Assembly: GCA_013297745.1 (NCBI GenBank)
Contig: JAAFIM010000007.1
Span: 747 to 64,746, forward strand
Length of the DNA stretch: 64,000 nt
DNA from: Chitinophagales bacterium
GTDB taxonomy: Bacteria; Bacteroidota; Bacteroidia; Chitinophagales; Saprospiraceae
Direction of reading: 5' to 3'
Shown here: piece by piece, positions 1,581 to 54,078 of the stretch
Layout of the letters: the number at the start of each line of letters is the position of its first letter
Position numbering within the stretch: the stretch's first letter is position 1
Program-made: the position numbers and the translations under genes
Notes under the pieces: generated by a model
Database searches by the model: none
Told to the model about the DNA's origin: nothing
Seen by the model: only the letters and a program-made list of their open reading frames with translations

Positions 1581-1612
1581 AAAAAATATAAAATGATATA
1601 GCCAAAAAAATG

Positions 1613-1922: not shown

Positions 1923-1927
1923 AAATG

Positions 1928-4930: not shown

Positions 4931-7435
4931 CTAATACGGGTCTATATCCACCAGCACCCGCAGCCCTTTATAAGTGCTATTATTCTGTATTTGCTCTTGA
5001 AGGCTAACAATAAGTTGCTTGGTCGCTTGCAAAGTCGCGCTATCTTTGGTTAGTTTTAATAAAATATCCATTAGAAAATACTCGCGCACTCTGGAAATAG
5101 CGGGTACGGCAGGGCCTAAAACCCTATCTCCAAGCTGTACTTTCAACGATTGGGCAAAAAACACAGCAGCCGATTGTACAATTTCTTCCCGTTTATGCTT
5201 AAATTGTATGCCTATCAACTTGCTAAAAGGCGGATAACCAAAATTTTGCCGTTCTGCCAACTCGCGCTGCAAAAATTGTTCAAAATCATTCTCTTTCAAC
5301 TCCCACAATACTGGATGTTCTGTGTTGTAGGTTTGTATAAATACTTTACCGTTTTTCTTTTTGCGCCCTGCGCGCCCTGCTACTTGAGTGAGTAGTTGAT
5401 AAGCGCGTTCTGAAGCGCGGAAATCGGGAAACTGTAGCATTTGGTCGGCAGAAATAACCCCCACCAAACCCACATTATCAAAATCCAAACCTTTTGTAAC
5501 CATTTGCGTACCGATTAAAATCTGCACTTCGCGCTTTTCAAACGCTTGGATGATTTTATCCGCGCCCGTTTTGCCCTTGACTGTGTCTAAATCCATCCGC
5601 GCCGTTTGTATATCGGGAAAGTATATTTTAATATCATCTTCTATCTTTTCCGTACCAAAACCTTGAGGATTTAACGAAGCTGAACCGCAAGCTGGGCAAT
5701 GTTTGGGCAAAAATTGGGTTAATCCGCAATAATGGCAGTGCAAATCGCGGCTGTCGTGGTGATAAGTCATTGATACATCGCAACGGGTGCATTTTCCCGC
5801 CCAGCCGCAACTTTTGCATTTGTACGCGGGCGCATATCCGCGCCGATTTTGGAATAAAATAACCTGCTCTTCTTTGGCAAAACAATCTGTAATCGCTTGC
5901 AACAGTTGAGGGCTAAAATGGCTTTTCATCAACTTGCGCTTGGTTTCTTCTTTTATATCCACCAACAAAATATCGGGCAAAGCCAACCCCCCAAAGCGGT
6001 TTTTCATCTCTACCAACCCGTACTTTTTTTGTTGAACGTTGTAATAAGTTTCTACTGAAGGCGTAGCCGTTCCCAGCAAGGTTTTGCATTGGTACAAATG
6101 CGCCATATACACAGCCGTATCGCGCGCATTATAACGCGGATTGGGGTCAGTTTGTTTGTAACTGGGGTCGTGTTCTTCATCTACCAAGATTAAACCCAAA
6201 TTTTGAAAAGGTAAGAATAGAGCCGAGCGCGCGCCCAACACCACAGGGCAACCGTTCAAAACCTTATTCCAAATTTCTACCCGCTCAAAACTGTTAAACT
6301 TGGAATGATAAGTCAATACTTTATCCCCAAAATGCTTTTGCAACCGCCCCACCATCTGTGCCGTAAGCCCTATTTCTGGCAAAAGGTATAAAACTTGTTT
6401 GCCCGCATCTATAGTTTTTTGTATCAATTCCACAAACACTTGCGTTTTTCCACTCCCCGTTACCCCGTGCAATAAAATAGCGTTTTTAGATAAAAATTGA
6501 TTTTCTATATCGGACAAAGCCGCTTTTTGTATATCAGAAAGTGCATAATTGCCCACTCCTTCGTGTTCATAATCTATCAAACGGCTTATTTCTATCTCAA
6601 AAAGGTTAAAAATTCCCTTTTTTGCCATCGCATTCAATACGCTGCTATCTACGTTGGCTTTTTCATAAATCTGTTTTCGGCTCAATTGGCGGGTTTGTTC
6701 TGCTTTGCTCAATTGTATAAACGCCATCAACGCTTCAGTCTGTCGCCCAGAGCGGCTTATTTCCGCGAATACATCAGACAACAAATGGGGCTGGCTTTGG
6801 TAGGGTTCTGCCAATTCCACCATAGACAACATTTTAGGCTTATATTTTTCTTTCAATTCGTCCAATATCGTAATCAATTTTTTTTCCAACATCTTTTTCA
6901 ACAGCGGCCGCACTTGATAATTGGGGCAAAGTTTTTGGATTTCATCTATAGTCAATTCGCTATTTTTCATCAAACTTTCCATTATAAAATTCTCGCGCGG
7001 GTTGAGATTTGCCAAAAACTCTTGTTGGTCTTCGTATTGTTCGTGCAATATAATTTTAGTTTCTGATTCCAACTTAAACCCAGCAGGCAAAGCCGCTTGC
7101 ATCACTTCCCCCATCGTGCAGAGATAATAATTCGCTATCCAATTCCACAACGCAAACTGTTTGTCTGTAACAATAGCTTCTTCATCCAATACGGATAAAA
7201 TAGGTTTGGTTTTATAATCTGTAGGCGCTTGTTCAAACAGTTCATAAATCAACCCCGCGTATAATTTTGTACCTCTAAACGGCACTTCCACCCGCACGCC
7301 CTTTTTCACCAAAGGCGCAAGATGCACAGGCACGCTGTAAGTGTATAATTTAGGCAAAGGCAAGGGCAAAATAACCGTTGCAAATAATAATTCTTTGCTC
7401 TGAATTTCGTTCTCTTCAAATAGTTGAAATAACAT
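4931..7435 (-). CDS. priA: Primosomal protein N' (replication restart helicase PriA)
   Basis: Walker A GVTGSGKT, DEEHD box, C-terminal zinc-binding CxxC...CxxC cluster (CKSCGWAGKCTRC...CHYCG...CPACGS), ~830 aa. Confidence 0.9.
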   Translation of the reverse strand: MLFQLFEENEIQSKELLFATVILPLPLPKLYTYSVPVHLAPLVKKGVRVEVPFRGTKLYAGLIYELFEQAPTDYKTKPILSVLDEEAIVTDKQFALWNWIANYYLCTMGEVMQAALPAGFKLESETKIILHEQYEDQQEFLANLNPRENFIMESLMKNSELTIDEIQKLCPNYQVRPLLKKMLEKKLITILDELKEKYKPKMLSMVELAEPYQSQPHLLSDVFAEISRSGRQTEALMAFIQLSKAEQTRQLSRKQIYEKANVDSSVLNAMAKKGIFNLFEIEISRLIDYEHEGVGNYALSDIQKAALSDIENQFLSKNAILLHGVTGSGKTQVFVELIQKTIDAGKQVLYLLPEIGLTAQMVGRLQKHFGDKVLTYHSKFNSFERVEIWNKVLNGCPVVLGARSALFLPFQNLGLILVDEEHDPSYKQTDPNPRYNARDTAVYMAHLYQCKTLLGTATPSVETYYNVQQKKYGLVEMKNRFGGLALPDILLVDIKEETKRKLMKSHFSPQLLQAITDCFAKEEQVILFQNRRGYAPAYKCKSCGWAGKCTRCDVSMTYHHDSRDLHCHYCGLTQFLPKHCPACGSASLNPQGFGTEKIEDDIKIYFPDIQTARMDLDTVKGKTGADKIIQAFEKREVQILIGTQMVTKGLDFDNVGLVGVISADQMLQFPDFRASERAYQLLTQVAGRAGRKKKNGKVFIQTYNTEHPVLWELKENDFEQFLQRELAERQNFGYPPFSKLIGIQFKHKREEIVQSAAVFFAQSLKVQLGDRVLGPAVPAISRVREYFLMDILLKLTKDSATLQATKQLIVSLQEQIQNNSTYKGLRVLVDIDPY

Positions 7436-7693
7436 TTATTAGTGTATAGTTATTAGTGATTAGTTATTAGTTATCAATGGTTAGTGATAGAAAATAAAGT
7501 TCGTAAGTTTTTTTAAATACTTTTGCAAACTGCGCAAAGCTATAGTAAATGTTTGCAAAGCCAAAAATTTTCCCGCAAGTCCGCCTCCCAATTAAGAAAC
7601 GAAGTTGCGCGTAAGCGAAAGGGACGGGGAGGGCTAACACACTCCAACAAGCAAACCACGCAAAGCTTTTACCGCTACAATTTCCAAACTCCC

Positions 7694-10153
7694 TTATTCA
7701 AAAATAAGTCTCAACGTAAACGCATTCCAATCCGCCGCCGATTCTCCTTTTTGTCGTTGGCTGCGCAGTTGATTATCAACAGGCTTTTCCATATCTGCCA
7801 AAGGCAAACCATTTTGCAACCATTCGCTAATATCAAACCTGCCCCAACTAATTAGCACTTTTACATACGAAAATTGCGTTTTAGGGTTGCACTCCAACCC
7901 AAATACTTCGCTGCGAGCTTGAGTAAAAGCTATATTTTGATTAGTTGCCAAAGTTGTAGGTTCTATAATCGGCGTAATGCTGTAGTCGCGGCTCATATAC
8001 AGCAGCGCAACCTGCAAACTTTGGGTAGTATCCACTTGATTTTTATAACTCACCGAAGCCGCAAAATTAGCCACCCGCGCACTACCTTTGCTATTGGGTT
8101 GGGTTTGTATCAACAAAGGGCTATATTGGTTAAAATCTTGCTTAATGGGAATTTGATAGGTTTTATTAGCTGCCAAATCCTGTATATGTACGGTCAATTC
8201 TGCCCCCAAAAACGACTGCAAGCGGGCAGGGTGGGGATTGTGCAAAAATAATCTTTGTTTAAACATCGCCATCGTTTTCAACCAACCGCTCACTTCTACC
8301 GCTGACACCAAATCGGCTGGGCTGCTGGCGCGTGTCAAAGGCGTTTGGCGGGGACTGAGTAGTAAAAAACCATCATTTTGGCTGGCTACGTACACATCTA
8401 CGGGCGCATTTTCTGCTATGTTGGTATAAACGGGCAAAAAATTGCATAAAGGGCTGTCTTTAAACTCTGAAAAGTTGGGTTGAGTGCCTGCTTTTATCTT
8501 CAAAAACACCTCTTTGTCTTCAGGCAGTAGATAATCTATCAAACCCGACGTCCAAAATTCCTGATTTTCTACATTTATGGGTATAAATTTTAAAGTTTCT
8601 TCTAGATACTCCTTTGCGATAGCCGCCCAACCGCCCTTTTCTATCTCCCAAGCCTTACCATTTATAGAACGACAGGGGTATTTTTCGCTATCATTTGCCT
8701 TATTCTGCAAAATTCCGAACCGATACAGCAGTCCGCGCGCTGTAGTGGCGTTATTAAAATAGTTTTTGTACAAATAAACCGTGTAATTATCCGCGTACAG
8801 GCTAAATTCTGCATCGTCTTTGCCAATTTCTACCATATCGGGCATATTCTCAGCCAATAAATTGAGGAAAAAGGCGATATTTTCGTTCTCTTTGGTTGGC
8901 AATATGCCCACATTTAGCTTACTCGCGGCAACTACCAACTGTTCTGGGCGAATTTTGACATAAAATAACTCATTCCCGTTTGAATTTTGTACAAAATCGG
9001 GTACATTTTCCAACTCACAGAAGGCAGGGGCAACATAATTCACCCTCGCCACGCCCGTTTTATCCCGCAAGTTGCTAACTTCCACCTCAAAATGTTCGTT
9101 GGATTTCAATATCGGCAGCCCCTGAAGCGCGCCTATGTCTATTTTGTGTTTATATTCTTTGCTAATTCCGTCAAAAACGCTGATTAAATTATAACAAAAC
9201 TGCCTTTTTGCGCTATCTTGGTTCAAAAAACGGCGGAAGCGGGTGGTTTTATCCTCATTTTTGACATAAAGGCTGGGCGTTTGGGGAAACCCTTTTTCTA
9301 TAACCATTCTTAGCCTAATTTCTAACTCGTGGTAGCTGATATTTCCTGCGGTTATTTTCAACAATTTGCATAAATTGGTGGTAAAAATACCGCTTGGGCT
9401 GCCCGTTTCTTTGGTTTCATACGCACATTCGCTGTAGGCGCAAGCGCAGAGGTGTATATGGGGTGCTTCAGGCACCATTTTTTCAAAAGTTTGGGGCGTT
9501 ATTTGGGTAGAATTTTGGGTATTTTGTCGGTTTAAATTGCGGGTTATCTCTTCTGGGAAAGATTCGTACTGATTACTATCTCTTTTCTGCCCAAAGTTGG
9601 GGTGATTTCGGGGCAAAATTTCCCTTTTTTGGTAATTATCCGATTTCAAATCCTCCCCATAAGCGCGGGTGGCGCGTTCAGAATGGCAAGAATCTTGTAT
9701 GAATATAATCTCCACTTCTTTTTTATACATCAAACTGAATAATTGTCTAATCTCTACACTCAAAATATCAAAAATGGGTTTTCCCGCTTCAATAACCCCA
9801 CTATCACAGGGTACTAATGTGGATAAATAGCCCGTAGCCGATTGAAAATAAGGGTCGGCTTTCTCTTGCGAGCCGTGTCCAGCATAAAATAGGCAAAAAA
9901 TATCCCCTTTTTGTAATAAATTGATATGTTGTTGGATAGCCAGCAGTATATTCCTGCGGGTGGGTAAAGCGGTTTCGTTATTTTGGTGAGAACTGTACAA
10001 TTTTACCGTTTTTTGCTGATAAGTGTTTTTATCAATGTACAAATTGGCACAGGACAAAAAGGCTTCTGCATCGTGGATACAGCCGTATAAATTGCTTATT
10101 TTATCGTGTTGATATTTGTTGATAGCTATAGCTAAAGTATAAAATGTGGGCAT
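7694..10153 (-). CDS. Caspase-like (peptidase C14) domain protein with ~500-aa uncharacterised C-terminal region
   Basis: The N-terminal ~300 aa carry a caspase His-Cys dyad in canonical context: FYAGHGS (His) and IQDSCHSE (Cys). The remainder has no recognisable motifs. Confidence 0.7.
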   Translation of the reverse strand: MPTFYTLAIAINKYQHDKISNLYGCIHDAEAFLSCANLYIDKNTYQQKTVKLYSSHQNNETALPTRRNILLAIQQHINLLQKGDIFCLFYAGHGSQEKADPYFQSATGYLSTLVPCDSGVIEAGKPIFDILSVEIRQLFSLMYKKEVEIIFIQDSCHSERATRAYGEDLKSDNYQKREILPRNHPNFGQKRDSNQYESFPEEITRNLNRQNTQNSTQITPQTFEKMVPEAPHIHLCACAYSECAYETKETGSPSGIFTTNLCKLLKITAGNISYHELEIRLRMVIEKGFPQTPSLYVKNEDKTTRFRRFLNQDSAKRQFCYNLISVFDGISKEYKHKIDIGALQGLPILKSNEHFEVEVSNLRDKTGVARVNYVAPAFCELENVPDFVQNSNGNELFYVKIRPEQLVVAASKLNVGILPTKENENIAFFLNLLAENMPDMVEIGKDDAEFSLYADNYTVYLYKNYFNNATTARGLLYRFGILQNKANDSEKYPCRSINGKAWEIEKGGWAAIAKEYLEETLKFIPINVENQEFWTSGLIDYLLPEDKEVFLKIKAGTQPNFSEFKDSPLCNFLPVYTNIAENAPVDVYVASQNDGFLLLSPRQTPLTRASSPADLVSAVEVSGWLKTMAMFKQRLFLHNPHPARLQSFLGAELTVHIQDLAANKTYQIPIKQDFNQYSPLLIQTQPNSKGSARVANFAASVSYKNQVDTTQSLQVALLYMSRDYSITPIIEPTTLATNQNIAFTQARSEVFGLECNPKTQFSYVKVLISWGRFDISEWLQNGLPLADMEKPVDNQLRSQRQKGESAADWNAFTLRLIFE

Positions 10154-11241: not shown

Positions 11242-12153
11242 TTATCCGTTGAAAATTTTAATATAATAACCTTTTGAGTTGTAAGCGCGCAAAAATTTGG
11301 ATTTGCCGCAAGCAGTAGAACAAACCCCTTGTAGTTCGCCCCCGCAGTTTTCGCACTGCACAAAATGCTCGTTGCAGTGGGGATTGGCGCAATTGACCAT
11401 ACGGGTAGAATGTGTGCCGCAGGTTTTGCAGCGGGTGATAACTGTAGGATTTACCGTATTGATAGGCACTTGCACGCGATTGTCAAACACATAACAGTTG
11501 CCCTCAAAATCCTTGCCGCCTACCATTTTACCGTAGTTAATAATCCCCCCGTGTAGTTGATAAACTTCCCCAAAACCCTGTTCGCGCAGATAAGCGGATG
11601 CTTTTTCGCACTTGATACCGCCCGTGCAATAGGTGAGGATTTTTTTTCCTTTGTACTGTTCCAATTCGTCCAAATGCTCAGGCAAGTTGCGAAAATTATC
11701 AATATCCAAAGTTACGGCGTTTTTGAACTTTCCCAATTGGTGTTCATAATTAGAACGCACATCCAAAACCACCACATCTTCTTGGTCTTTCATAGCCAAA
11801 AATTCTGCTGGGCTTAAATGATTATCTACATCACTATCGGCAGGATTTACCGCCAAAGGCAGGTCAGAATGCACAATTTCAGTTTTATAGCGGACGTGCA
11901 TTTTAACAAAAGACGGCTCATTGACTTCATCAATTTTATAATGAATATCTGCAAAGCGTTCATCTTGAGCCAGCGTCTGCATATAAGTTTGGCATTGGGC
12001 TGCTGTGCCTGAAACGGTGCCGTTGATGCCTTCATCAGCTATCAATACGCGCCCTAAAAGCCCTAATTGTTTGCAAAATTGGAGATGCTGTTCGGCAAGC
12101 TCGGCTGCGTTTGCAATACGCACGTACTTGTAGTACAACAGGGTTTGGTACAT
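11242..12153 (-). CDS. trhO: tRNA uridine(34) hydroxylase, rhodanese-domain protein (YceA/UPF0176)
   Basis: LLYYKYV N-terminus, rhodanese active site YCTGGIKCEKASAYL, C-terminal Cys-rich tail. Colinear with E. coli YceA from memory. Confidence 0.85.
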   Translation of the reverse strand: MYQTLLYYKYVRIANAAELAEQHLQFCKQLGLLGRVLIADEGINGTVSGTAAQCQTYMQTLAQDERFADIHYKIDEVNEPSFVKMHVRYKTEIVHSDLPLAVNPADSDVDNHLSPAEFLAMKDQEDVVVLDVRSNYEHQLGKFKNAVTLDIDNFRNLPEHLDELEQYKGKKILTYCTGGIKCEKASAYLREQGFGEVYQLHGGIINYGKMVGGKDFEGNCYVFDNRVQVPINTVNPTVITRCKTCGTHSTRMVNCANPHCNEHFVQCENCGGELQGVCSTACGKSKFLRAYNSKGYYIKIFNG

Positions 12154-12163
12154 AGAATTTTTT

Positions 12164-13084
12164 TTATGGTTTGAATTTTTTGTCTATAAATGCGCGCTCT
12201 TCATCAGTTAATTGTTCGCGGGTCATACTCTCTTTTCCGCCATTTTCATTTGGTTTTTTGTTTTTTCCTCCTGTGATATGAAACCCGTGGAAAGTAAAAG
12301 AATTGACATCATTTAGCTCTTTACTGTTGTACTTAAAAATAAGATAACAGCCTTTTTCTTCGTCCCAAACTGCTAGAGTGGAATCCTTTATTTGTATAGC
12401 TTTTTGTAGTAGGTTATTAGTAATTTTTTCTTTTTCTTCGCTTTCATTATATAAAAGTGGGCTAATCCATTGGCCTTTCTCTTGCCTTGCAAATTCAGCA
12501 CGATGGTGTTTATCACAATACTCAAAAACTCTAGGCTGGCGATTCTTTTTTAACCAATTTCGTAAATCACTTTCGTTACCAACTATATCAATTTTAACTA
12601 AAATAGGAAGATAAATAGATTCACGTAAAAAAGCTTCTTCATCTATTATAATAAGTTTACGAGCAAGTTTAGTATTATGTTCCCAAAATAAAAATTTATA
12701 AAAATTCGGTATGTTAGGCAGATAATATTCTATAAAATTAATGACTGCACTAGACCCAGAAAATTCAACGCAATACGCATTTTTATTTTGTTGTTCGTAC
12801 TCAAAATAAGTATGATTTTTTGAAATAGGAGTATCTATCCGTTCCATTTTTTGGAAAAAACTACTCACGCTGCTTGATAGCAGTTTAATATTTTTTGCTT
12901 TTAAATCTGCCATAATTTTTTCAACTACGTGATTTAAAATAATAATTTTACAATTTTTTTCAAAAAAAAGCCAGCGAAAAGTATCAAAAATTAGTTCTCT
13001 TGTTGACGTGTCCGTAAAAAGGTATGTATCATTTTTATCAAAGCCAGCGAAAACGATTAATTTTGTTTGTTCCATAATGAGCAT
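12164..13084 (-). CDS. Hypothetical protein, third gene of DUF262/ATPase cassette
   Basis: 306-aa ORF starting 6 nt after the ATPase stop. No recognisable motif. AT-rich. Confidence 0.5.
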   Translation of the reverse strand: MLIMEQTKLIVFAGFDKNDTYLFTDTSTRELIFDTFRWLFFEKNCKIIILNHVVEKIMADLKAKNIKLLSSSVSSFFQKMERIDTPISKNHTYFEYEQQNKNAYCVEFSGSSAVINFIEYYLPNIPNFYKFLFWEHNTKLARKLIIIDEEAFLRESIYLPILVKIDIVGNESDLRNWLKKNRQPRVFEYCDKHHRAEFARQEKGQWISPLLYNESEEKEKITNNLLQKAIQIKDSTLAVWDEEKGCYLIFKYNSKELNDVNSFTFHGFHITGGKNKKPNENGGKESMTREQLTDEERAFIDKKFKP

Positions 13085-13090
13085 ACTTTT

Positions 13091-14248
13091 TTAAAATCCC
13101 ACTAAAAATTCCCTATCAATATCCATTTGGTCAAAAAAACCACTTGGTGCATCTTTTATCCAATATCCTTCCACTATCGGCACGTGAATAGTTCTTGCTT
13201 CTTGGCTATTTTCATCGCGGTCTATGTAATAAATGGCCACATTATCGGGGCTTATGCCTTTTTTATCTTCAGCAAATTTTTTGCAAGCAACCAAAATACC
13301 ATTGATGAGGTGGTCGCTGTGGGTTTCTACCACCACTTGTACGCCCGCCTGTGCAGCGAGAGCTATTAATTCGGCAAGTTTAGCTTGTCCGCTGGGGTGG
13401 ATATGCGCCTCAGGATTTTCTAATAAAACCAAACCATCTTTGGGCGTAGCCAATAGAGCTAATACCACAGGCAAAGCATAAGAAATACCAAAGCCCACGT
13501 TTTGGGGTTTGTATTCAAGCGATGTAATAAGCCCTGCGGTTCTAAATCTAAAATTAAGTTTCAAAAAATCTTTATTATCAATAATGACCGCTTCAACACC
13601 TTCACTTATTTCTCCAAGCCAAGCGTTTACGTTTGAGGATAAATGTAAGTCATCTGCTTTTTCGTGTTTTAGTTGTATGTTAGCAAGTTCTTTGTTACCG
13701 TTAATACTTAAAACGTGTATTGCGTATTCTGCTTTTCCTTGTTTGTGAGAAATTTGACCTTTCTTTTCAGCAATTCGCCAACTTCTTGAATGGGTTTCTT
13801 TTGGTCCAATATGTTCAGTGGCAATATATTGAAATGCTAGACTTTCACTAAATAAAGCCGCTTTGATAGGAGCAAGAATTTTAGAATCTACACTTAATTC
13901 TAAATTATCTACGCTTTTGTCTACTTCATTATTGGGCAGCACAGGGAATACAAATTTGACATAATGATTTATATTGCTATCAAATTGTAAATCAAAAGCG
14001 ATAAAATTATCTTCAGCATATTCGCACAAAGCATCTTTAGCGTTGCCGACATTTACCAAGTCTTCGTTAAGCACCAAACCTTCTTGGAAAGAAGAACTTT
14101 TTAAATAAGATTGCCGCAATAATAATAAACTTTGTATAATGGAAGATTTACCTGCTCCATTTTTGCCTGTAACAACAGTCAAAGGTTTGCAAGTTAGTTC
14201 TGTATTGAGGTGTGATTTGTAATTTTGAATTTTTAGTTTTGTTATCAT
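13091..14248 (-). CDS. ABC-type/AAA_21-family ATPase (DUF3696-like C-terminus)
   Basis: Walker A VTGKNGAGKSS, Walker B/D-loop VLLENPEAHIHP, H-loop VETHSDHL. Its ATG overlaps the upstream stop in an ATGA quartet. Confidence 0.75.
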   Translation of the reverse strand: MITKLKIQNYKSHLNTELTCKPLTVVTGKNGAGKSSIIQSLLLLRQSYLKSSSFQEGLVLNEDLVNVGNAKDALCEYAEDNFIAFDLQFDSNINHYVKFVFPVLPNNEVDKSVDNLELSVDSKILAPIKAALFSESLAFQYIATEHIGPKETHSRSWRIAEKKGQISHKQGKAEYAIHVLSINGNKELANIQLKHEKADDLHLSSNVNAWLGEISEGVEAVIIDNKDFLKLNFRFRTAGLITSLEYKPQNVGFGISYALPVVLALLATPKDGLVLLENPEAHIHPSGQAKLAELIALAAQAGVQVVVETHSDHLINGILVACKKFAEDKKGISPDNVAIYYIDRDENSQEARTIHVPIVEGYWIKDAPSGFFDQMDIDREFLVGF

Positions 14249-15624
14249 AGTGCAAGTGTTTTGTCAATAATTTCTTTAATTTTTTCGTATCTTATTAGCA
14301 CATTTTGCTTGTGTCCTGTGCCTGTAGTGATGCTGTACGTAAAGTTTTTAGAACCTTGATTATCATTAAATAACTTTACAAACAAAAGATTAAAGTCTTG
14401 TTTGTATTGAACAATTTTTTGCTGTTCTTCTTTACTCAAACGCGCAAAAGAAACAGTTAGTACTTCAAATAAAGCCTTATTGATTGGATTGCGTTTTTTC
14501 TCTGAAATATCAAATCTTTTTCTAAAAGCATAATCCCCAAAAATTTTGCTAAGCGTGTTTATTGTTTCTTCAAACTTTTTTTCGATTTCCAATAAAGTAT
14601 TTTTGTCTGTATTAGTAATTTTTTTCATAACCTTATTTAAAAAACCGTCCATATCTGCTTGGTATTCGCTGTGTGGCAACAAATAAAAAGCTAGAAAACG
14701 AGTTATAAAATCGCAGTCTTCCATACGTTCGGAAGCAATAGCGTTATTGGTAATATCCAAAAAATGCGCGGAACTTGCTAATTTATTTATAAAAGTTGAT
14801 GCTTCTCTTGAATTAAGCGCGTGGCGAATTTCTTGGTCAGTGAGTAATAACCCACTAGTATTAATTCGTTTAAAAAGGTTAAATTTAACGACATCAGGCG
14901 AACTTGCGCTAACAATATAAGCAGTAATTGAAAACTCCTCTATCCTTGCGCGAAGGCTAGGACTTAGTTCCTTAAATGTTTTGTTTTTTAATCCTTGTGC
15001 ATTAAGATACTCTAAACCTTGCAATTTTAAAAAATCTTTATTTTTTCCATCTCCTTTTCCTAAAATAAAATGACTTATGGCGCTTATTCGCTGAAGCCCA
15101 TCTACCACTTGATAAACCCCATTTTCAATTTCCACAAAATAAAAAGCTGGTAATGGAAATGATAATAAAATTGATTCAATAAGTTGACTTTTTTGAGAAA
15201 AATTCCAAAGATGTGCTTTGCGTTGATAGGGCGGATTTAAGTCTATCAGTTTACTTTTTATTCTTGATATAATGTTAGAGATTACCATAGGTTTAACATC
15301 TATTCTAACATCTTTAGGATTTAGAAAAACATTTCCTACATTATCACTTTCATAGTTTTCTAGAAATTCTATTTCTTTTTCTACTTTTTGGCTTTTGAAA
15401 GAATAACAATTTGACTTACCTATTTTAATACAATCTATACTTTCGTCATATACTCTCATTTCTGGATTGGTTAAAGTGCTCAATGCAGAAGACACAGAGG
15501 CTTGCGGAGTTTTAGTTTCAAATATAAAATAATTCTTTTCCACAATGTAATCGTGGATTTCTTTAGCAGTAGCTGGTCTGCCTATTTCCTCCATTGCTAT
15601 TTTGCACGCTTCAATAAGTGTCAT
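14245..15624 (-). CDS. DUF262 (ParB/Srx-like, DGxQR) domain protein with N-terminal HTH (HARE-HTH-like)
   Basis: VVDGLQRISAI is a DGQQR-type motif. The N-terminal ~70 aa are a winged-helix-like module. 459 aa. Confidence 0.7.
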   Translation of the reverse strand: MTLIEACKIAMEEIGRPATAKEIHDYIVEKNYFIFETKTPQASVSSALSTLTNPEMRVYDESIDCIKIGKSNCYSFKSQKVEKEIEFLENYESDNVGNVFLNPKDVRIDVKPMVISNIISRIKSKLIDLNPPYQRKAHLWNFSQKSQLIESILLSFPLPAFYFVEIENGVYQVVDGLQRISAISHFILGKGDGKNKDFLKLQGLEYLNAQGLKNKTFKELSPSLRARIEEFSITAYIVSASSPDVVKFNLFKRINTSGLLLTDQEIRHALNSREASTFINKLASSAHFLDITNNAIASERMEDCDFITRFLAFYLLPHSEYQADMDGFLNKVMKKITNTDKNTLLEIEKKFEETINTLSKIFGDYAFRKRFDISEKKRNPINKALFEVLTVSFARLSKEEQQKIVQYKQDFNLLFVKLFNDNQGSKNFTYSITTGTGHKQNVLIRYEKIKEIIDKTLAL

Positions 15625-15640
15625 TTTATTATAATTTTAG

Positions 15641-15676
15641 TTTTTTAAAAAAAGCCCTCACTAAAGCGAGGGCTTT
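15641..15676 (-). terminator. Intrinsic terminator downstream of glnS
   Basis: The stem aagccctc/gagggctt is flanked by a T-run on the minus strand. Confidence 0.6.
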
Positions 15677-15699: not shown

Positions 15700-17388
15700 T
15701 TACGATTGTTTTTTCAACTCCTTAGCCCAGCTATCTTTTAGCTCTACGGTAAGGTTGAAAATGGGCGCGGCGGCTGCACTTTCCGTATCTACACAGAAAT
15801 AACCTTTGCGCATAAATTGGAAATGTTCGCCCGCTTTGGCATCGGCTAGGGATTTTTCCCCCCAAGCGGTGATGGTTTTGAGCGAGTTGGGGTTGATATA
15901 ATCGGTAAATTCTTCATCTTCGGGAATATCAGCCGCATTTTCTATAGTCAAAAGTCTGTCGTACCAGTTGATTTGTACGGGGTGGTAGTTGTTGGCATCT
16001 ACCCAATGGATAACGCCTTTTACTTTTAGCCCGCTGGTATCGCTGCCCGACTTGGAATTTTCTACATAAGAGGCGCGAATTTCTACCAAATTGCCGTTTT
16101 CATCCTTAATCAATTCCTCGCATTTGATAATATACGCGTGTTTTAGCCGCACATAACCGTTGGGGGTTAGCTTGAAATAGCCTTTGGGGGGATTTTCGTT
16201 GAAATCTTCTCTCTCTATAAAGATAGTGTTGGAAAAACTCAACTCGCGGTGTCCTGCGTTGCTGTCTTCTGGGTTGTTTTCGGCTGGCAATAGCTCGGTT
16301 TTGCCCGTTTCGTAGTTGGAAATGACCACTTTTATCGGGTCTATAACCGCCATTACGCGTTTAGAAATTTTATTCAAATCTTCTCGGATAAAATGTTCCA
16401 ATAAAGACACATCCAGCATAGATTCGCGCTTAGAAATACCCACTGCTACAGCAAAATCGCGTATAGCTTTGGCGGTATAACCTCTCCTGCGCATACCCGA
16501 AATGGTTGGCATTCGCGGGTCGTCCCAGCTATTAACTAATTGTTTTTCAACGAGTTTGAGCATCTTGCGCTTAGACATCACCGTATAGGTAAGGTTGAGG
16601 CGGGCAAATTCTATTTGTTGGGAGTTGTACAAGCCCAATTCTGCCAATAACCATTCGTAAAAAGGTCTGTGCGGCTCAAATTCCAGCGTGCAAATGGAAT
16701 GGGTAATGCCTTCCAAAGCGTCGGAAATCGGGTGCGCGAAGTCGTACATCGGATAAATACACCAGTTGTCGCCCGTGCGGTGGTGGTGCGCGCGTTTAAT
16801 CCTATAAATTACGGGGTCGCGGAGCAGCATATTGGGCGATGCCATATCAATTTTGGCGCGTAAAACACATTCGCCGTCCTTAAACTCGCCCTTGCGCATC
16901 TTTTCAAACAGGCTTAGGTTCTCTTCTGCGCTGGTTTCGCGGTAAGCATTGCCCGTTCCCGCTTGGGTGGGCGTGCCTTTTTGCTTGGCTATATCGTCAG
17001 GGCTGGAAAAATCCACATAAGCTAAGCCTTTTTTAATCAAGGTTTGTGCGCAAGTGTATAAATTTTCAAAATAATCGGAAGCATATTTCACCTCGCCGTC
17101 CCATTCAAAGCCCAACCAACGCACATCGTTTTGTATGGAATTGACATAATCCACTTTTTCTGTGGTGGGGTTGGTGTCGTCAAAGCGCAAATTGGTCGCG
17201 CCGCTGTATTTTTTGCCTAAACCAAAGTTCAAACAGATAGATTTGGCGTGTCCGATATGCAAAAAACCGTTTGGCTCTGGTGGAAAACGGGTCAAAACGC
17301 GCTTGTTGTGTTTGCCTGTTTCGTTGTCGTGTTCTATAATCTCCTCGATAAAATTGAGTGATTTGACTTCGTTGTTTTCTATATTCAT
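15700..17388 (-). CDS. glnS: Glutaminyl-tRNA synthetase
   Basis: HIGH motif (PEPNGFLHIGHAKS) and KMSKS variant (VMSKR). Class I GlnRS-like length and order. Confidence 0.9.
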   Translation of the reverse strand: MNIENNEVKSLNFIEEIIEHDNETGKHNKRVLTRFPPEPNGFLHIGHAKSICLNFGLGKKYSGATNLRFDDTNPTTEKVDYVNSIQNDVRWLGFEWDGEVKYASDYFENLYTCAQTLIKKGLAYVDFSSPDDIAKQKGTPTQAGTGNAYRETSAEENLSLFEKMRKGEFKDGECVLRAKIDMASPNMLLRDPVIYRIKRAHHHRTGDNWCIYPMYDFAHPISDALEGITHSICTLEFEPHRPFYEWLLAELGLYNSQQIEFARLNLTYTVMSKRKMLKLVEKQLVNSWDDPRMPTISGMRRRGYTAKAIRDFAVAVGISKRESMLDVSLLEHFIREDLNKISKRVMAVIDPIKVVISNYETGKTELLPAENNPEDSNAGHRELSFSNTIFIEREDFNENPPKGYFKLTPNGYVRLKHAYIIKCEELIKDENGNLVEIRASYVENSKSGSDTSGLKVKGVIHWVDANNYHPVQINWYDRLLTIENAADIPEDEEFTDYINPNSLKTITAWGEKSLADAKAGEHFQFMRKGYFCVDTESAAAAPIFNLTVELKDSWAKELKKQS

Positions 17389-17484: not shown

Positions 17485-18186
17485 TTAACCCTCCACATTG
17501 CAGCGTTTAGCTATAAATTGATGTTTTAGGGCGTCAGCTATTTGTGTGCCTTCACATTGCAATTCTGTAAGTTGGCTTCTAGAAGGGTCTTTAGAAGGGT
17601 GTTGTAAAAAAGGGGCTAAAATAGCAAATAAGTCATTATCGCTTATACGCCCGCAATTCGTTAGGTTCAAAGTTGTTAAACTTGTGCAGCCTGATAAATC
17701 CAAGGTTGTTAAATTTGTGCAACGCGATAAATCTAAAGTTGTTAAGGCTTTACATCCCGACAAGTCTAATTGAGTTAATCCAACAAGACCACTAAAATTT
17801 ACTACGTTTAAATGCTCTAGTGAAGTTATTTGCATAGTGGGTAGTTGTTGGCAATTTATAACTCTTAGCTCTTTCAAATTAACTAATCCGATTTTTGCAT
17901 TTATCACCAAGTTTTCTAACACTGGGCACTCTGTAATTATTAATGTTTCTAGTTTTCGTAGAAGTTTGATAGGTTCTATGCTAGTGATATTAACTCTCAA
18001 AAGATTTAATTCCTGCAATTCTCTAATTGCTTTAAAGAAGTCAGAACGCTCAGTTTGGATATTATGGGGAATAACTTGAGTAAAAATAGTTCGCCAATCA
18101 ATACCAATAACATTATTCCACCAATCCGTTCTCGCTTCTTCATTGTCTAAAAAATACGGAGTTTTGCACTCATTGTATCTGGCCAT
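17485..18186 (-). CDS. Leucine-rich-repeat protein
   Basis: LTTLDLSGC/LTTLDLSRC/LTTLNLTNC repeats. Paralog of 18224..18862 with a shared N-terminal W-W motif. Confidence 0.65.
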   Translation of the reverse strand: MARYNECKTPYFLDNEEARTDWWNNVIGIDWRTIFTQVIPHNIQTERSDFFKAIRELQELNLLRVNITSIEPIKLLRKLETLIITECPVLENLVINAKIGLVNLKELRVINCQQLPTMQITSLEHLNVVNFSGLVGLTQLDLSGCKALTTLDLSRCTNLTTLDLSGCTSLTTLNLTNCGRISDNDLFAILAPFLQHPSKDPSRSQLTELQCEGTQIADALKHQFIAKRCNVEG

Positions 18187-18223
18187 AATAATTAATTTTT
18201 AAGGGTTAGAAAAGAGCATTTTT

Positions 18224-18862
18224 TTAATCAAAAACGACACAACCTTTATCTCTAAACTTATTTTTCATAGTCAAGCTAATGGCGCGCGTGCCTTTGCAAT
18301 GCAATTCTTTGAGTGGCAGGGCATTATTCAAAACAGGTTGTAAGTCTTTGGAAATAAAGTGTTTAGAGTGGCTACAATTCAGCGTTTGCAAGTCCAACAT
18401 ATTTTGTAAGAAAGAAAATTTTTCCAAATTTTTGCAGTTGGAGAAATTCAAGAAGGTTAGACTTGGCAATTTGGACAAATTGGATAAATTATCGCAATTG
18501 GAGCAATTAAGCAGCGTTAGGCTGGGCAATTTGGTTACGCTGATGAGTTGGGGGCAGTTGTTGCAAACCAAAGCGGTCAGGTAGGGCAGATTGGCGGCGT
18601 TGGTGAGTAGTGGGCAATTATAACAAACTATAGAGTTGATGTTGTTGAGATTGGCTATAGCATTGAAGTTTAAAATGTTTGTATTCGGACATTTTAATTT
18701 GGTGATAGCAGCAATTTTTTCAAAATTCGGTTTTTCAACGGTACAATCGGCGTGTTGGGTTAAGATAGTTTTCCATTCGGGTTCTACATTTTCCCACCAT
18801 TCGCTGGCAGCTTCTGTATCTTGGAGAAAGGTTACATCGTTGAAATCGGCGTATTTGGCCAT
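18224..18862 (-). CDS. Leucine-rich-repeat protein
   Basis: NCPLL/NCPQL/NCDNL/NCKNL LRR-like repeats. N-terminus similar to 17485..18186. Confidence 0.65.
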   Translation of the reverse strand: MAKYADFNDVTFLQDTEAASEWWENVEPEWKTILTQHADCTVEKPNFEKIAAITKLKCPNTNILNFNAIANLNNINSIVCYNCPLLTNAANLPYLTALVCNNCPQLISVTKLPSLTLLNCSNCDNLSNLSKLPSLTFLNFSNCKNLEKFSFLQNMLDLQTLNCSHSKHFISKDLQPVLNNALPLKELHCKGTRAISLTMKNKFRDKGCVVFD

Positions 18863-18896
18863 AATGATAAAATATAAAGGTTAGAGAAAATAAAAA

Positions 18897-19610
18897 TTAT
18901 CTGTGTACAGAAGTGGGAAAGTATGGGCTAAAATCGTCGTTCCAACTTGGTTTTGATTTTACATACCAAATTTTAAACGCTAAAAATTGGCTTTCAGGTT
19001 GCAATTCTGCTTTTATTCTGTCTGCGTAGATTGCTTGTTCAGGCTTATTTTCGTTGTCGTAAAAATCATCTTTAAGTTGGGTCAAATCTGCCATTGCTTC
19101 TACAAGCAGTTTCCGCAAAGCGGCCGCTTTCATCCTGCTAGCGGCTGGAGGTTTATAAGTTGAGTCTATTTTACAATCTGCATTATAAATCCGAGAAAGT
19201 AATTTTACTGTGTTTAAAGTAGTTGGGTCAGTTTCTGTGGTAGAAATATCTACTTTTTCCTTTGGATTTTTAAAGGCTGTTAGGAGAAAAGAAATTTTTT
19301 CGGCTATCAAAATTTGTGAGTTTGTACAATCTAAAATATCGCTAAACGATTCACCGCTTTTCCGCGAGTTGCAATAACTACAAGCGTACATTAGATTATT
19401 CCAATTAAATTTTTTATGAGGGTTAGTATAACCGTTTGTTGTGTGATTTTGATAATGTTCAACTATAAAATCTGTATCAATTTTTTTCTCGCATAAGTAG
19501 CATTTATGATGAAAATCTGCTTGCAATCGATTCAAAACATCTTCATCGTCATACTTTTTTTGCGCTGCTAAAGAAGTGGGCGCAGGTTGGGATTTATGAA
19601 AGTTTATCAT
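18897..19610 (-). CDS. HNH endonuclease (PtuB-like)
   Basis: HHKCYLCEKK...EHY...NLMYACSYCNSRK is an HNH/His-Me finger signature. It overlaps the upstream ATPase gene by 17 nt. Confidence 0.65.
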   Translation of the reverse strand: MINFHKSQPAPTSLAAQKKYDDEDVLNRLQADFHHKCYLCEKKIDTDFIVEHYQNHTTNGYTNPHKKFNWNNLMYACSYCNSRKSGESFSDILDCTNSQILIAEKISFLLTAFKNPKEKVDISTTETDPTTLNTVKLLSRIYNADCKIDSTYKPPAASRMKAAALRKLLVEAMADLTQLKDDFYDNENKPEQAIYADRIKAELQPESQFLAFKIWYVKSKPSWNDDFSPYFPTSVHR

Positions 19611-21087
19611 AACTGCTAATTTTTGCTTGATACAATTCCTTAGTTTCGGCTAATAAAATTTTAATCTCAGCAGCGCGAAATTTTGGCATTTCTTGGAGTT
19701 GATTGCGCAATTTTTGCAGCATTTGTATATCTTTTTTCGTGGGTTGTTCTAAGCTCAACAAATTTTCATAGTCTGCTTTTATTTGGTTCAGAAAGTTAGA
19801 AAATTTATCCACTTCAAAATGCGTTTCCACTATCGCTTCAGCAGGAAATCCAACTAATGGCTCATTTATAAGGTTATGATTTTCCAAATCATAAACTACT
19901 GCGTTATCTATAGAGGATAACACATAAGGCGAATGGCTGCTTACAATAAACTGTATATTTGGGAAAAAACTGGTTAAAAATGGTAAAATTTGCTTTTGCA
20001 GTGCAATGTGTAGATGAGTTTCTATTTCATCGATTATTACTATTCCCTGTATATTCTCAGGTTCAGCATACCACATTATTTTTTTAAATAAGTTATCTAT
20101 ACCTTCGCTATGAGAAGATACGGGAATAGACCGTCTTCTATTTTGGTGTGTAGATATTGTTGTTTTTATTTTTTCAATTCTAAGCAAAATTTCTGATAGA
20201 ATATAAACAATGGACTTAAACCCGTCTGACAACTGTTGTAAGCCTACAGGCTCGCGGCCTGGTAACTTTACATCAAAATAGTAATTGCGAGAATCGAATG
20301 TAAATTTAAATTCATTTCTTTCAATTTCTGAAATTTCAAAAATACTGCACAAGTAACTTTCAAAGATGTTGAACCAATTTTCTACTTCCGCTACTTCATC
20401 TTCATTTTTATTTAGTGAAGAGAAGGCTTGCTGTATGCGTTTTTGCATCAAATAGTGGATAAATTGAGAGTTTGCTTGTTCTCTAATACCTTGCTCTTCA
20501 AATTTGAATGCCTGAGTTGATTTTTCTGTTTGAGGTTTTAGAAAATCAAAATCACGTTGTGCTGGAATATAAGCAGTTACAAAAGGAACTTCGTAATAAT
20601 CAATAAATCCGTAAACTAATTGGTCAGTTGCGGAAAAATTGATTTTTCTTAGCCAATTTTCACTATTTTTACCTAACAAACTGACACTACCAAGTCGCTG
20701 TCGAGCCCCAAACCGAGCCCCAAAATCAATGGCTTGTTGTTCAAACTCATTATCAGAAATATGATTTTCTAATAGATTGATGTCGTCTAAAGAAAGATTA
20801 GAGTTTTCTTTAGCTTTTAGTAAGCTTTGGTGACTTATTTTTAGCTGGGCTTTAAGAGAAGATGTGTGAATTTGGAAAGTGGCACTTGAATATTCATTAG
20901 TTAAGTCTTGCAATTTATCGCGTATTTCTTCCAACACGGAACTCTTACCACTCCCATTTTTTCCTGTGAGGATTAGGTGGCGGCGAATATCTTTACCAAT
21001 TTCTATATGAATACGGCGTAGGTGGCGGCATTTTAGTATAAAAATATCAGTTAGAAAGTACTGCTCATAAAGTCCGTCCTTTTCCAT
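19594..21087 (-). CDS. AAA_21/ABC-type ATPase (PtuA-like)
   Basis: Walker A LTGKNGSGKSS. Walker B/H-loop VIIDEIETHLH...SSHSP. 497 aa. Visibly AT-richer than the adjacent Fe-S gene. Confidence 0.7.
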   Translation of the reverse strand: MEKDGLYEQYFLTDIFILKCRHLRRIHIEIGKDIRRHLILTGKNGSGKSSVLEEIRDKLQDLTNEYSSATFQIHTSSLKAQLKISHQSLLKAKENSNLSLDDINLLENHISDNEFEQQAIDFGARFGARQRLGSVSLLGKNSENWLRKINFSATDQLVYGFIDYYEVPFVTAYIPAQRDFDFLKPQTEKSTQAFKFEEQGIREQANSQFIHYLMQKRIQQAFSSLNKNEDEVAEVENWFNIFESYLCSIFEISEIERNEFKFTFDSRNYYFDVKLPGREPVGLQQLSDGFKSIVYILSEILLRIEKIKTTISTHQNRRRSIPVSSHSEGIDNLFKKIMWYAEPENIQGIVIIDEIETHLHIALQKQILPFLTSFFPNIQFIVSSHSPYVLSSIDNAVVYDLENHNLINEPLVGFPAEAIVETHFEVDKFSNFLNQIKADYENLLSLEQPTKKDIQMLQKLRNQLQEMPKFRAAEIKILLAETKELYQAKISSYDKLS

Positions 21088-21089
21088 AG

Positions 21090-21881
21090 TTAAAGTCCAT
21101 TGCTTTTGACTATCAATTCGGACAAATCCAACACCATAATACTATCTTGGCGTTCTTTTTCCTTGATGCCGTCTTGCAACATTGTGATACAGAAAGGGCA
21201 GTTGGCGGCTACTATAGTGGCGTTGGTTTCCAACAATTCTTCGGTGCGGGCTGTATTGATGCGCTTATTCCCTTTTTCGTCCTCTTTGAACATCTGCGCG
21301 CCGCCTGCTCCACAGCATAAACCGTTGGCGCGGCTGCGTTTCATTTCCACCAAATCCGCGTCCAATTGAGCCAATAATTCGCGGGGGGCTTCGTACACTT
21401 CGTTGGCGCGGCCGAGATAGCAAGAATCGTGATAGGTGATTTTTTTCCCTTTAAATTCGCCCCCTTGCACTTTCAACTTGCCTTCATTGACCAAAGATTG
21501 TAAAAATTGGCTGTGGTGCAGCACTTCATAAGAACCGCCCAAGGCTGGATATTCATTTTTGAGGATATTGAAACAGTGGGGGCAAGCGGTTACGATTTTT
21601 TTGACCTCGTACATATTCAACAGCATTATATTCTGTTGCGCTTGAGTTTGGAATACAAATTCGTTGCCTGCGCGGCGGGCTGGGTCGCCCGTGCAGTTTT
21701 CTTCTTTACCCAAAACGGCAAATTTTATCCCAACTTCGTTCAAAATTTTGCACATTGCTACAGTGATGCGTTGGGCGCGTTGGTCAAAACTACCAGCACA
21801 GCCCACCCAAAATAAAATTTCTGGTTTGTCGCCTGCTGCGTACATTTCTGCCATTGTGGGAATAACTAAAGGCTTGTTCAT
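21090..21881 (-). CDS. (Fe-S)-binding protein with two cysteine-rich CCG domains (LutA/GlcF/HdrD-like)
   Basis: VGCAGSF...TACPHCFN and GLCCGAGG...ANCPFC motifs. Confidence 0.75.
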   Translation of the reverse strand: MNKPLVIPTMAEMYAAGDKPEILFWVGCAGSFDQRAQRITVAMCKILNEVGIKFAVLGKEENCTGDPARRAGNEFVFQTQAQQNIMLLNMYEVKKIVTACPHCFNILKNEYPALGGSYEVLHHSQFLQSLVNEGKLKVQGGEFKGKKITYHDSCYLGRANEVYEAPRELLAQLDADLVEMKRSRANGLCCGAGGAQMFKEDEKGNKRINTARTEELLETNATIVAANCPFCITMLQDGIKEKERQDSIMVLDLSELIVKSNGL

Positions 21882-54014: not shown

Positions 54015-54078
54015 CAAACAATTATCAACTTTCATTTATTTTCAATCGAAAATAAAGTTTTCCAACTTTTTCTTCTTC

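Follow-up and report, generated by a model that had tools for sequence, protein, structure and literature searches.

Gene Content and Organization of the Cassette

Between glnS and trhO, the ORF map of the window (the whole stretch of 64,000 nucleotides that was analysed) shows three tightly packed genes, nsnA, nsnB, and nsnC, all running in one direction on the minus strand. The genes, the domains predicted within their products, and the terminator that divides the cassette from glnS are as follows:

15651..15676, minus strand: glnS intrinsic terminator, hairpin AAAGCCCTCGCTTTAGTGAGGGC then T7, dividing glnS from the cassette
14245..15624, minus strand: nsnA (459 aa), putative Menshen sensor subunit
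15466..15624, minus strand: NsnA HARE-HTH / winged helix, residues 1–53 (Pfam PF05066, E 1.1e-5), the "Type II" feature
14815..15282, minus strand: NsnA DUF262 (ParB/Srx-like NTPase), residues 115–270 (Pfam GmrSD_N; motifs YQRKAHLW, DGLQR, FKRIN)
13091..14248, minus strand: nsnB (385 aa), ABC-type ATPase with C-terminal DUF3696
13115..13255, minus strand: NsnB DUF3696, residues 332–378 (Pfam PF12476)
12164..13084, minus strand: nsnC (306 aa; 303 aa if read from its second ATG), putative Menshen effector subunit
12635..13084, minus strand: NsnC PIN-like alpha/beta domain (called "inPIN" in Menshen), residues ~1–150, where the cassette varies most
12269..12619, minus strand: NsnC BECR-fold RNase-like effector domain, residues ~156–272

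The stop codon of nsnA overlaps the start codon of nsnB (ATGA, 14248..14245), and nsnB and nsnC are separated by a gap of 6 nt (13085..13090), an arrangement that indicates translational coupling of all three genes. A second in-frame ATG three codons into nsnC is the start of an identical database protein (P0001, 303 aa); were nsnC to begin there, the gap would be 15 nt. Only 10 nt separate the nsnC stop codon from the trhO start, and no terminator was found in this interval. On the other side, the glnS terminator, read on the minus strand, pairs AAAGCCCTC with GAGGGCTTT in its stem, after which comes TTTTTTT. A sigma-70 promoter scan returned 18 sites compared with 17.4 in shuffled sequence, and this consensus is probably inapplicable to the Bacteroidota host. 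The G+C content of nsnA (0.31), nsnB (0.36), and nsnC (0.30) is well below that of glnS (0.45), trhO (0.44), and the window as a whole (0.40). An initial annotation of this DNA had described a three-gene cassette that starts after the glnS terminator and ends 10 nt before trhO, with the same overlap and gap and a higher AT content than either neighbor; all of this holds, and the ORF map adds the minus-strand orientation.

NsnA: Putative Sensor Subunit

The product of nsnA matches the PADLOC NsnA model over residues 79–457 (E 4.9e-117; profile positions 22–383 of 385) and Pfam GmrSD_N/DUF262 over residues 115–270 (E 4.8e-22). Motifs YQRKAHLW, DGLQR (read as VVDGLQRISAI in the translation), and FKRIN are invariant in four alleles, in keeping with the DGxQR and FxxxN motifs of the Menshen DUF262 domain, although motif I is QR-x4-W, one residue longer between QR and W than the Menshen QRxxxW. 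Because the match spans the NsnA profile, the C-terminal helical (ParBDB) domain that follows DUF262 in Menshen is taken to be present as well. The N-terminal HARE-HTH match, at 26.1 bits, lies just at the Pfam gathering threshold (25.9), and the same domain is found in three other NsnA alleles (E 3.7e-7, 2.2e-6, and 4.6e-5). The predicted order of domains in NsnA is thus a winged helix of the HARE type, the ParB-like DUF262, and, at the C-terminus, the helical ParBDB. An extra N-terminal winged-helix domain on NsnA defines "Type II" Menshen (PMC12065111), and here too an extra domain precedes DUF262, with the PADLOC NsnA profile beginning only at residue 79. The assignment of the domain differs, however: Pfam calls it HARE-HTH, whereas the text of PMC12065111 gives Mrr_N and eight new "PS-wHTH" families, without HARE. 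Homologs of NsnA are numerous (at least 3715 at E ≤ 1e-10 among 8000 scored candidates).

Neither DUF1524 nor HNH was matched in NsnA at E ≤ 0.1 (Pfam, NCBIfam), and DUF1524, HNH, PD-(D/E)xK, and Toprim were undetectable in NsnA, NsnB, and NsnC (Pfam, PADLOC, NCBIfam). The profile searches agree with the initial annotation, which had read an N-terminal HTH and a DGxQR/DUF262 signature in this protein and had remarked on the missing HNH/DUF1524 partner.

NsnB: ATPase

NsnB matches its PADLOC model over the full length (E 1.4e-94) and, in Pfam, AAA_15 (E 4.6e-26), AAA_21 (E 2.4e-22), and DUF3696 (E 5.9e-8). It has a Walker A motif GKNGAGKS, a Walker B motif LLEN in which EN replaces DE, a GFG signature, and an H-loop THSDH; LVLLEN, GFG, and THSDH are invariant in four alleles. 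The EN Walker B and the GxG that stands where SGG is usual are traits specific to NsnB, and DUF3696 is the docking site predicted for the N-terminal domain of NsnC, based on AlphaFold 3 models (PMC12065111). NsnB therefore shares both substitutions, DUF3696, and the AAA_15-type ABC ATPase domain with the Menshen subunit. The earlier reading of an AAA_21/ABC-type ATPase, based on VTGKNGAGKSS, LLENPEAHIHP, and VETHSDHL, is borne out: all three strings occur in the translation.

NsnC: Putative Effector

NsnC has no Pfam match, and a PDB sequence search was empty. The match to the PADLOC NsnC model PDLC03909 is distant (E 2.3e-11). An exhaustive profile search nonetheless recovered 82 relatives, most having only the C-terminal domain in common, compared with only two from a word-indexed search, and all 62 relatives that were aligned match the PADLOC NsnC model (best E 3.5e-89). 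An AlphaFold2 model (pLDDT 86, pTM 0.83) confidently places a PIN-like domain at the N-terminus and a BECR-fold RNase-like domain at the C-terminus, which is the usual layout of NsnC. In the BECR part, H193, D241, and H266 are invariant, and W177, R185, and H269 are nearly invariant; in Menshen, PB-BECR1, with its H-R-H triad, is the commonest C-terminal domain of NsnC (PMC12065111), and the modelled PIN-like plus BECR fold with conserved His/Arg/His is alike here. By contrast with published Menshen, the NsnC of this cassette is far from the PADLOC model and its PIN-like domain is almost without relatives. The PIN-like domain of Menshen NsnC is described as inactive, without the catalytic D-E-D-D tetrad. 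In the 62-sequence alignment, the acidic residues of the poorly aligned N-terminal half are nowhere invariant or nearly so; close alleles share some. The description of this protein as devoid of recognizable motifs stands for Pfam and NCBIfam, where a search for nuclease folds also gave nothing, and gives way to the PADLOC match and the modelled PIN-like and RNase-like folds.

Assignment to Menshen and Comparison With Other Systems

The name Menshen goes back to Millman et al. (2022), cited in PMC12065111, in which Li et al. (2025) dissected the system. The founding example, from Solibacillus silvestris StLB046, is cited there as protecting against T2, T4, T6, and Fado; a biochemical mechanism has been demonstrated for no Menshen system (PMC12065111). 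The three genes described here share the gene trio, A-B-C order, and orientation of Menshen, and the same order is found in four other lineages. With HMM E-values reaching 1e-117, the likeness is far beyond chance. Judged from its sequence, the cassette is a copy of a system already named and is not new; we consider it very probable that an uncultured Bacteroidota lineage here carries a Type II Menshen, nsnA-nsnB-nsnC, as a resident immune locus, hypervariable in sequence, between glnS and trhO. Apart from the differences in NsnA and NsnC given above, the cassette departs from known Menshen in its host and in having a fixed locus position with a mosaic structure between strains. NCBIfam has no family that reaches its cut-off for NsnA, NsnB, or NsnC, and PHROGs yielded only NsnA- and NsnB-like families of unknown function, which are uninformative.

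Several other defense systems share individual components with the cassette. As in the DUF262-DUF1524 Type IV restriction systems GmrSD, SspE, and BrxU, NsnA combines a ParB-like DUF262 NTPase sensor with a following helical DNA-binding domain; a GmrSD-type Type IV enzyme was rejected because NsnA has no fused DUF1524/HNH, the effector being a separate protein (NsnC) reached via a separate ABC ATPase (NsnB). In Septu (PtuAB), PARIS (AriAB), and Gabija (GajAB), as is predicted for Menshen, an oligomeric OLD/AAA_15-type ABC ATPase holds or regulates a nuclease effector, and the NsnB4-NsnC2 assembly predicted in PMC12065111 resembles these ATPase-nuclease complexes. These three systems were rejected as well: NsnB matches AriA (E 6.3e-28), GajA (E 5e-15), and also HEC-03B weakly compared with its own model, the cassette has a third, DUF262-containing sensor subunit, and the effector is predicted to be PIN-like plus BECR rather than HNH or Toprim. 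PD-T4-2 likewise contains DUF262, but NsnA matches PD-T4-2_A (E 5.3e-30) some 87 orders of magnitude more weakly than it matches the NsnA model, and the partner genes match NsnB and NsnC rather than PD-T4-2 components. A match of NsnA to the PADLOC model "REase_II" (E 6.3e-10) is weaker still.

Site Occupancy and Allelic Variation

The cassette occupies exactly the glnS/trhO site in all five contig sets available for the clade; among the available relatives, the searches turned up no empty glnS|trhO junction. A metagenome scan with TrhO gave nothing between 98 and 76% identity, and within 7 kb of the loci at or below 76%, glnS and Nsn genes were both absent. Around glnS of the closest outgroup (GlnS 66%), the gene neighborhood differs. 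In reference genomes (GTDB representatives, which leave out the source species), none of 80 glnS loci (≤64% identity) was near trhO or Nsn genes; the one DUF262 gene nearby, in L002, is unrelated. The repeats that flank the cassette are all short, AT-rich, and attributable to chance, with no integrase signs of a mobile island; there is no tRNA within 38 kb, and Rfam returned nothing in the region. The proposal that the cassette is an island inserted into a housekeeping locus thus retains the dip in G+C, which amounts to 10–14 points below the flanks in all lineages compared, but the universal occupancy and the lack of an empty site, bounding repeats, or a tRNA leave it supported only in part.

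The position is fixed and the sequence is highly variable. Between contigs whose flanks are 95–100% identical in amino acids, NsnA is only 50–51%, NsnB 61%, and NsnC 39% identical; three contig sets of this kind carry three alleles of NsnA plus the NsnB N-terminal part and two alleles of NsnC at the same site. At four-fold sites, identity is 44–46% for NsnA, 43% for NsnC, and 55–64% for NsnB as a whole, compared with 82–93% for the flanking genes. The variation falls into segments:

13510..15450, minus strand: variable block 1 (NsnA ~60–459 and NsnB ~1–245), 38–73% DNA identity, with flanks at 96–100%
13200..13510, minus strand: conserved core (NsnB ~245–350: Walker B, D-loop, H-loop, start of DUF3696), 90–97% DNA identity
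12165..13100, minus strand: variable block 2 (the whole nsnC gene), 38–59% DNA identity in the PIN-like part and 59–69% in the BECR part

The N-terminus of NsnA is 90–97% identical in amino acids between alleles over residues 1–30 and 70–87% over residues 31–60. In 100-nt sliding comparisons the breakpoints are sharp, and identity returns to at least 90% at the start of trhO. The blocks also vary separately: L085 and L148 have NsnC proteins that are 99% identical, whereas their NsnA and NsnB are 69 and 79% identical, and in the L082 lineage the C-terminal effector domain of NsnC has been replaced outright. The sharp breakpoints and saturated synonymous sites argue for divergent alleles that are exchanged block by block. 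We read this replacement, of the NsnA core with the N-terminal half of NsnB and, separately, of NsnC, as recombination of old divergent alleles under phage-driven diversifying selection, with the conserved NsnB core at 13200..13510 likely serving as a recombination joint. A bolder and more tentative idea, which we put at somewhat less than an even chance, is that the glnS/trhO Menshen is a fixed MHC-like locus, at which old, highly divergent alleles are kept in one population and reshuffled at the HARE-HTH end beside glnS and the NsnB core to give two exchangeable specificity modules; one module would join the NsnA core to the N-terminal half of NsnB, and the other would be NsnC.

A Septu system lies beyond glnS, 3 kb away, as a separate unit in the same window, and is found only in this strain.

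Alternative Interpretations

The initial annotation had proposed a defense cassette, and in this it fares well: defense models match all three proteins, and the distinct composition, the hypervariability, and the strain-specific Septu nearby point the same way. Its proposal that the system is undescribed, with a DUF262 sensor, an ATPase, and an effector of unknown kind that bear no relation to named systems, draws on the silence of Pfam and NCBIfam on NsnC, their lack of a system-level name for NsnA and NsnB, and the paucity of NsnC relatives in the word-indexed search. It is, however, extremely improbable given that PADLOC, run on the locus, called Menshen for all three proteins (E 4.9e-117, 1.4e-94, and 2.3e-11), two of them at E < 1e-90 over the full length, that every aligned NsnC relative matches NsnC models, that the modelled fold of NsnC has the published NsnC architecture, and that NsnB displays the idiosyncrasies of its family. 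Comparison with relatives, in turn, speaks against a conserved, non-variable core locus unconnected with defense islands. A core operon peculiar to the clade, serving some housekeeping function (such as ParB/SMC-like DNA handling or control of a co-transcribed trhO) and held in place by vertical inheritance because that function is essential, would account for the occupied site in every contig set, for the absence of mobile-element hallmarks, and for the short interval between nsnC and trhO (10–34 nt), where trhO may depend on read-through transcription since no terminator was found. Such an operon is nevertheless very improbable: a divergence of 50–60% within near-identical flanks, with saturated synonymous sites and sharp breakpoints, is unlike that of core genes, and the outright replacement of an effector domain, the low G+C content in every lineage, the toxin-type folds modelled for the effector, and the anti-phage activity of homologs in experiments cited in PMC12065111 all argue against it.

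Menshen could also be read here as akin to Type IV restriction: NsnA would recognize modified phage DNA through its DUF262 domain, the final target would be DNA rather than RNA, and NsnC would act as a DNase or a mere adaptor. DUF262 senses modified DNA in GmrSD and SspE (PMC12065111), the T-even phages against which the tested Menshen is cited as protective have glucosyl-hmC DNA, and the weak "REase_II" match of NsnA is of the same tenor. We nonetheless regard this reading as very improbable, in view of the lack of any detectable DUF1524, HNH, PD-(D/E)xK, or Toprim domain in the three proteins. The sensing half of this reading is compatible with the Menshen explanation; the target alone differs.

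Proposed Mechanism and Significance

For the Type II Menshen favored here, we infer that NsnA would bind invading phage DNA via its winged-helix, ParB-like DUF262, and helical domains, with NTP binding or hydrolysis at the DGxQR center serving as a switch. DNA-bound NsnA would then stimulate the ABC ATPase of NsnB, which, as a predicted tetramer, would hold NsnC with the PIN-like domain clamped between two DUF3696 tails. ATP binding or hydrolysis would activate or release NsnC, whose BECR-type domain, with R185, H193, D241, H266, and H269 as candidate catalytic residues, would cleave RNA and thereby halt translation, either the phage's or that of the infected cell. AlphaFold 3 predicted no contact between NsnA and NsnB (PMC12065111), and signaling from NsnA to NsnB is therefore the weakest link of this scheme.

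As a system, the cassette adds little, given that Menshen is already named, its phage protection known, and its domain polymorphism cataloged. The locus is useful as a natural experiment, in which modules are seen to shuffle, as Li et al. (2025) proposed, within what is apparently one species, and in which comparison of alleles separates co-varying from constant segments. These segments suggest chimeras for mapping the specificity of the sensor, the NsnA–NsnB interface, and the docking of NsnB with NsnC. If the co-inheritance of the NsnA core with the N-terminal half of NsnB reflects co-adaptation rather than adjacency, it would mark an NsnA–NsnB contact surface that structure prediction has missed.

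Gene Layout and Family Assignment of the Cassette

The cassette comprises three reverse-strand genes between glnS and trhO:

17388..15700 (−): glnS, upstream flank of the cassette
15624..14245 (−): nsnA (protein 1, 459 aa), from the ORF map
14248..13091 (−): nsnB (protein 2, 385 aa), from the ORF map
13084..12164 (−): nsnC (protein 3, 306 aa), from the ORF map
12153..11242 (−): trhO/UPF0176, downstream flank of the cassette

The nsnA and nsnB genes share an ATGA overlap, nsnB and nsnC are 6 nt apart, and glnS is separated from nsnA by a G+C-rich hairpin and its T-run. G+C content is low (nsnA 0.31, nsnB 0.36, nsnC 0.30, versus glnS 0.45 and trhO 0.44). These details of the initial annotation, including the ORFs and the 10 nt before trhO, were borne out, and every motif quoted there was found in the translations. 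An alternative nsnC start is the second ATG, three codons in, where P0001, an identical protein of 303 aa in the database, begins. The interval from the nsnC stop to the trhO start is 10 nt both in the window (12154..12163) and in the clade contig L085 (7442..7451), and 34 nt in the clade contig L082 (7898..7931); no terminator was found between nsnC and trhO in any allele. Given so short a gap with no terminator seen in it, housekeeping trhO–bactofilin transcription may run through, or start within, the defense cassette.

Pfam searches identified in NsnA a HARE-HTH winged helix (residues 1–53; E 1.1e-5, right at the gathering threshold) and GmrSD_N/DUF262 (residues 115–270; E 4.8e-22), and in NsnB AAA_15 and AAA_21 with a C-terminal DUF3696; NsnC matched no Pfam family, and none of the three proteins had a qualifying NCBIfam family. 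PADLOC matched protein 1 to NsnA (4.9e-117, spanning the profile from end to end), protein 2 to NsnB (1.4e-94, full length), and protein 3 to NsnC (2.3e-11), the gene naming scheme being that of Menshen (PMC12065111); because of these matches, the question of identity is settled in favor of Menshen. Li et al. (2025; PMC12065111) credit the discovery of Menshen to Millman et al. (2022) and state that the Solibacillus silvestris system confers protection against T2, T4, T6, and Fado. The published description matches the window locus point for point. NsnA is described as a DUF262 protein that bears DGxQR and FxxxN motifs and continues into a helical DNA-binding domain, which fits NsnA here, and NsnB as an ABC ATPase in which Walker B DE has become EN and the SGG signature GxG, followed by DUF3696; the window NsnB shares these traits, reading LVLLEN and GFG. 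An additional N-terminal domain, most often a winged helix, is present in around 23% of NsnA proteins, which are termed Type II (PMC12065111). We assign the cassette to Type II Menshen; its NsnA bears a HARE-type winged helix, and its NsnC is unusually divergent. The initial annotation of a candidate undescribed defense system was thus correct as to defense, but the PADLOC matches place the cassette in a system already described.

The glnS–trhO Site in Related Genomes

The host species is absent from the GTDB species representatives, among which the best GlnS match was 64% (in Chitinophagaceae and Saprospiraceae; Bacteroidota). In a 15-billion-protein collection, only two 90% GlnS clusters fell within the clade, the next relatives being 66–68% identical. 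The cassette occupied the same site in every clade contig fetched: L085–L088 and L148 (flanks 95–100% aa identical to the window), L082–L084 (GlnS 88% identical), and L149 (TrhO 86% identical). The shared gene order is CCG-domain gene, LRR gene, glnS, nsnA, nsnB, nsnC, trhO, bactofilin, caspase-domain gene, priA. Neither the glnS–trhO adjacency nor the cassette was seen in the loci examined outside the clade. The cassette had been proposed to be an island inserted into a housekeeping locus; its G+C remains low in every lineage compared, but no empty glnS–trhO site was found in the loci examined, and a search for bounding repeats or a tRNA at the cassette found none, so nothing directly supports a recent insertion. 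In this lineage the cassette is a resident. In L002, a distant Bacteroidota MAG, a DUF262 gene (1538..2335; 28% identical to NsnA) lies ~1 kb upstream of glnS, probably by coincidence.

Same-Site Allelic Mosaicism

With the window as reference, alleles were compared against L085 and L148.

Table. Identity of window proteins to L085/L148 (aa identity; four-fold-site identity)
GlnS, TrhO, bactofilin: 98–100%; 82–93%
CCG, LRR, caspase genes, PriA: 95–99% (aa)
NsnA: 50–51%; 44–46%
NsnB: 61%; 55–64%
NsnC: 39%; 43%

Given A+T-rich codon usage, four-fold-site identity of 43–46% is close to saturation. Identity along the DNA was profiled in 100-nt sliding windows against both contigs, with breakpoints located by BLAST.

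Table. DNA identity along the locus (window positions)
Down to ~15600: at least 96%; glnS 3′ end and intergenic
15600–15500: 88–91%; NsnA HARE-HTH
15500–15400: 67–70%; transition out of HARE-HTH
15400–13500: 38–73%; NsnA residues ~60–459, NsnB residues ~1–245
13500–13200: 90–97%; NsnB Walker B, H-loop, DUF3696 start
13200–13100: 76%; NsnB 3′ end
13100–12600: 38–59%; NsnC PIN-like domain
12600–12200: 59–69%; NsnC BECR domain
Below 12200: at least 90%; from trhO start

Between L085 and L148, NsnC is 99% identical (four-fold sites 100%), but NsnA only 69% and NsnB 79%; therefore, the two variable blocks reassort. The identity pattern rules out point mutation in place as the source, and the mosaic requires that old, divergent alleles were exchanged by recombination within the conserved flanks and the conserved NsnB core. 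Joint inheritance of the NsnA core with the N-terminal half of NsnB may reflect either co-adaptation or mere adjacency. The mosaic alleles, which did not feature in the initial annotation, represent a within-lineage instance of the “multifaceted polymorphism” and domain shuffling inferred across bacteria by Li et al. (PMC12065111); together with an adjoining strain-specific Septu system, they are the chief value of this locus.

NsnC Relatives and Domain Replacement

A word-indexed homology search with NsnC recovered one relative besides itself, and an exhaustive profile search recovered 82 proteins among 1.84 billion representatives, mostly 280–310 aa and aligned over the C-terminal ~120 residues only. 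All 62 aligned relatives matched the PADLOC NsnC model (best 3.5e-89). In this alignment H193, D241, and H266 are invariant and W177, R185, and H269 nearly so, within the pattern NRxPRxF...KHGE...SPLL...AIGD...YHGYH. The L082 NsnC (7139..7897, 252 aa, P0007), from a lineage with GlnS 88% identical, is weakly similar to the window protein in the PIN-like N-terminal region, and its C-terminal ~70 residues are unrelated, with no significant match in a Pfam search; we read this as an effector-domain swap.

Proposed Mechanism and Alternatives

The evidence here concerns homology, architecture, and population pattern, and the working model is taken from PMC12065111. NsnA would detect phage DNA via its winged-helix, DUF262, and helical domains, upon which the NsnB ABC ATPase would be stimulated. 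A predicted NsnB tetramer would clamp the PIN-like domain of NsnC between its DUF3696 tails, in the manner of PtuA and AriA with their nucleases; the BECR domain of NsnC would then be activated or released, and phage or host RNA cut. The least secure step is the one from NsnA to NsnB, since NsnA appeared in none of the complexes that AlphaFold 3 predicted (PMC12065111).

The PADLOC matches of all three proteins, together with the 62/62 NsnC relatives, exclude an undescribed defense system. A housekeeping core operon would be compatible with the fixed location and with the 10-nt distance to trhO, but allelic divergence, domain replacement, low G+C, and predicted toxin folds all argue against one. 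A DNA-targeting Type IV-like system would have its sensing logic in common with this cassette, but no DNase domain is detectable.

Other Loci in the Window

PADLOC identified a Septu system on the other side of glnS:

18897..21087 (−): Septu system
21087..19594 (−): PtuA, ABC ATPase, 497 aa (PADLOC 2.7e-83)
19610..18897 (−): PtuB/HNH, 237 aa, overlapping the PtuA gene (PADLOC 3.6e-50)

This is a clean presence/absence polymorphism: window positions 21098..18866 correspond to ~45 bp in L085, which is otherwise ~97% identical. With Septu on one side and Menshen on the other, glnS is thus flanked on both sides by defense systems in this strain.

The interval between Septu and glnS (17485..18862, −) encodes a pair of small leucine-rich-repeat proteins of 212 and 233 aa. 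Relatives keep the 212-aa gene at 99% and 75% aa identity. The 233-aa gene (~18219..17573) is missing in both L085 and L082, and the BLAST segments overlap by ~95 bp at that point, suggesting a local duplication. Just downstream of trhO and the bactofilin gene lies a gene for an 819-aa protein (7694..10153, −; 96% conserved in L085). A caspase (Peptidase_C14) domain occupies its N terminus (Pfam 4.7e-17; PADLOC “caspase” 1.4e-12), the long C-terminal portion is uncharacterized, and the gene may be another one with an immune or effector role. A tandem tRNA-Val(TAC) pair, 64 nt apart (53940..54156), is unrelated to the cassette.
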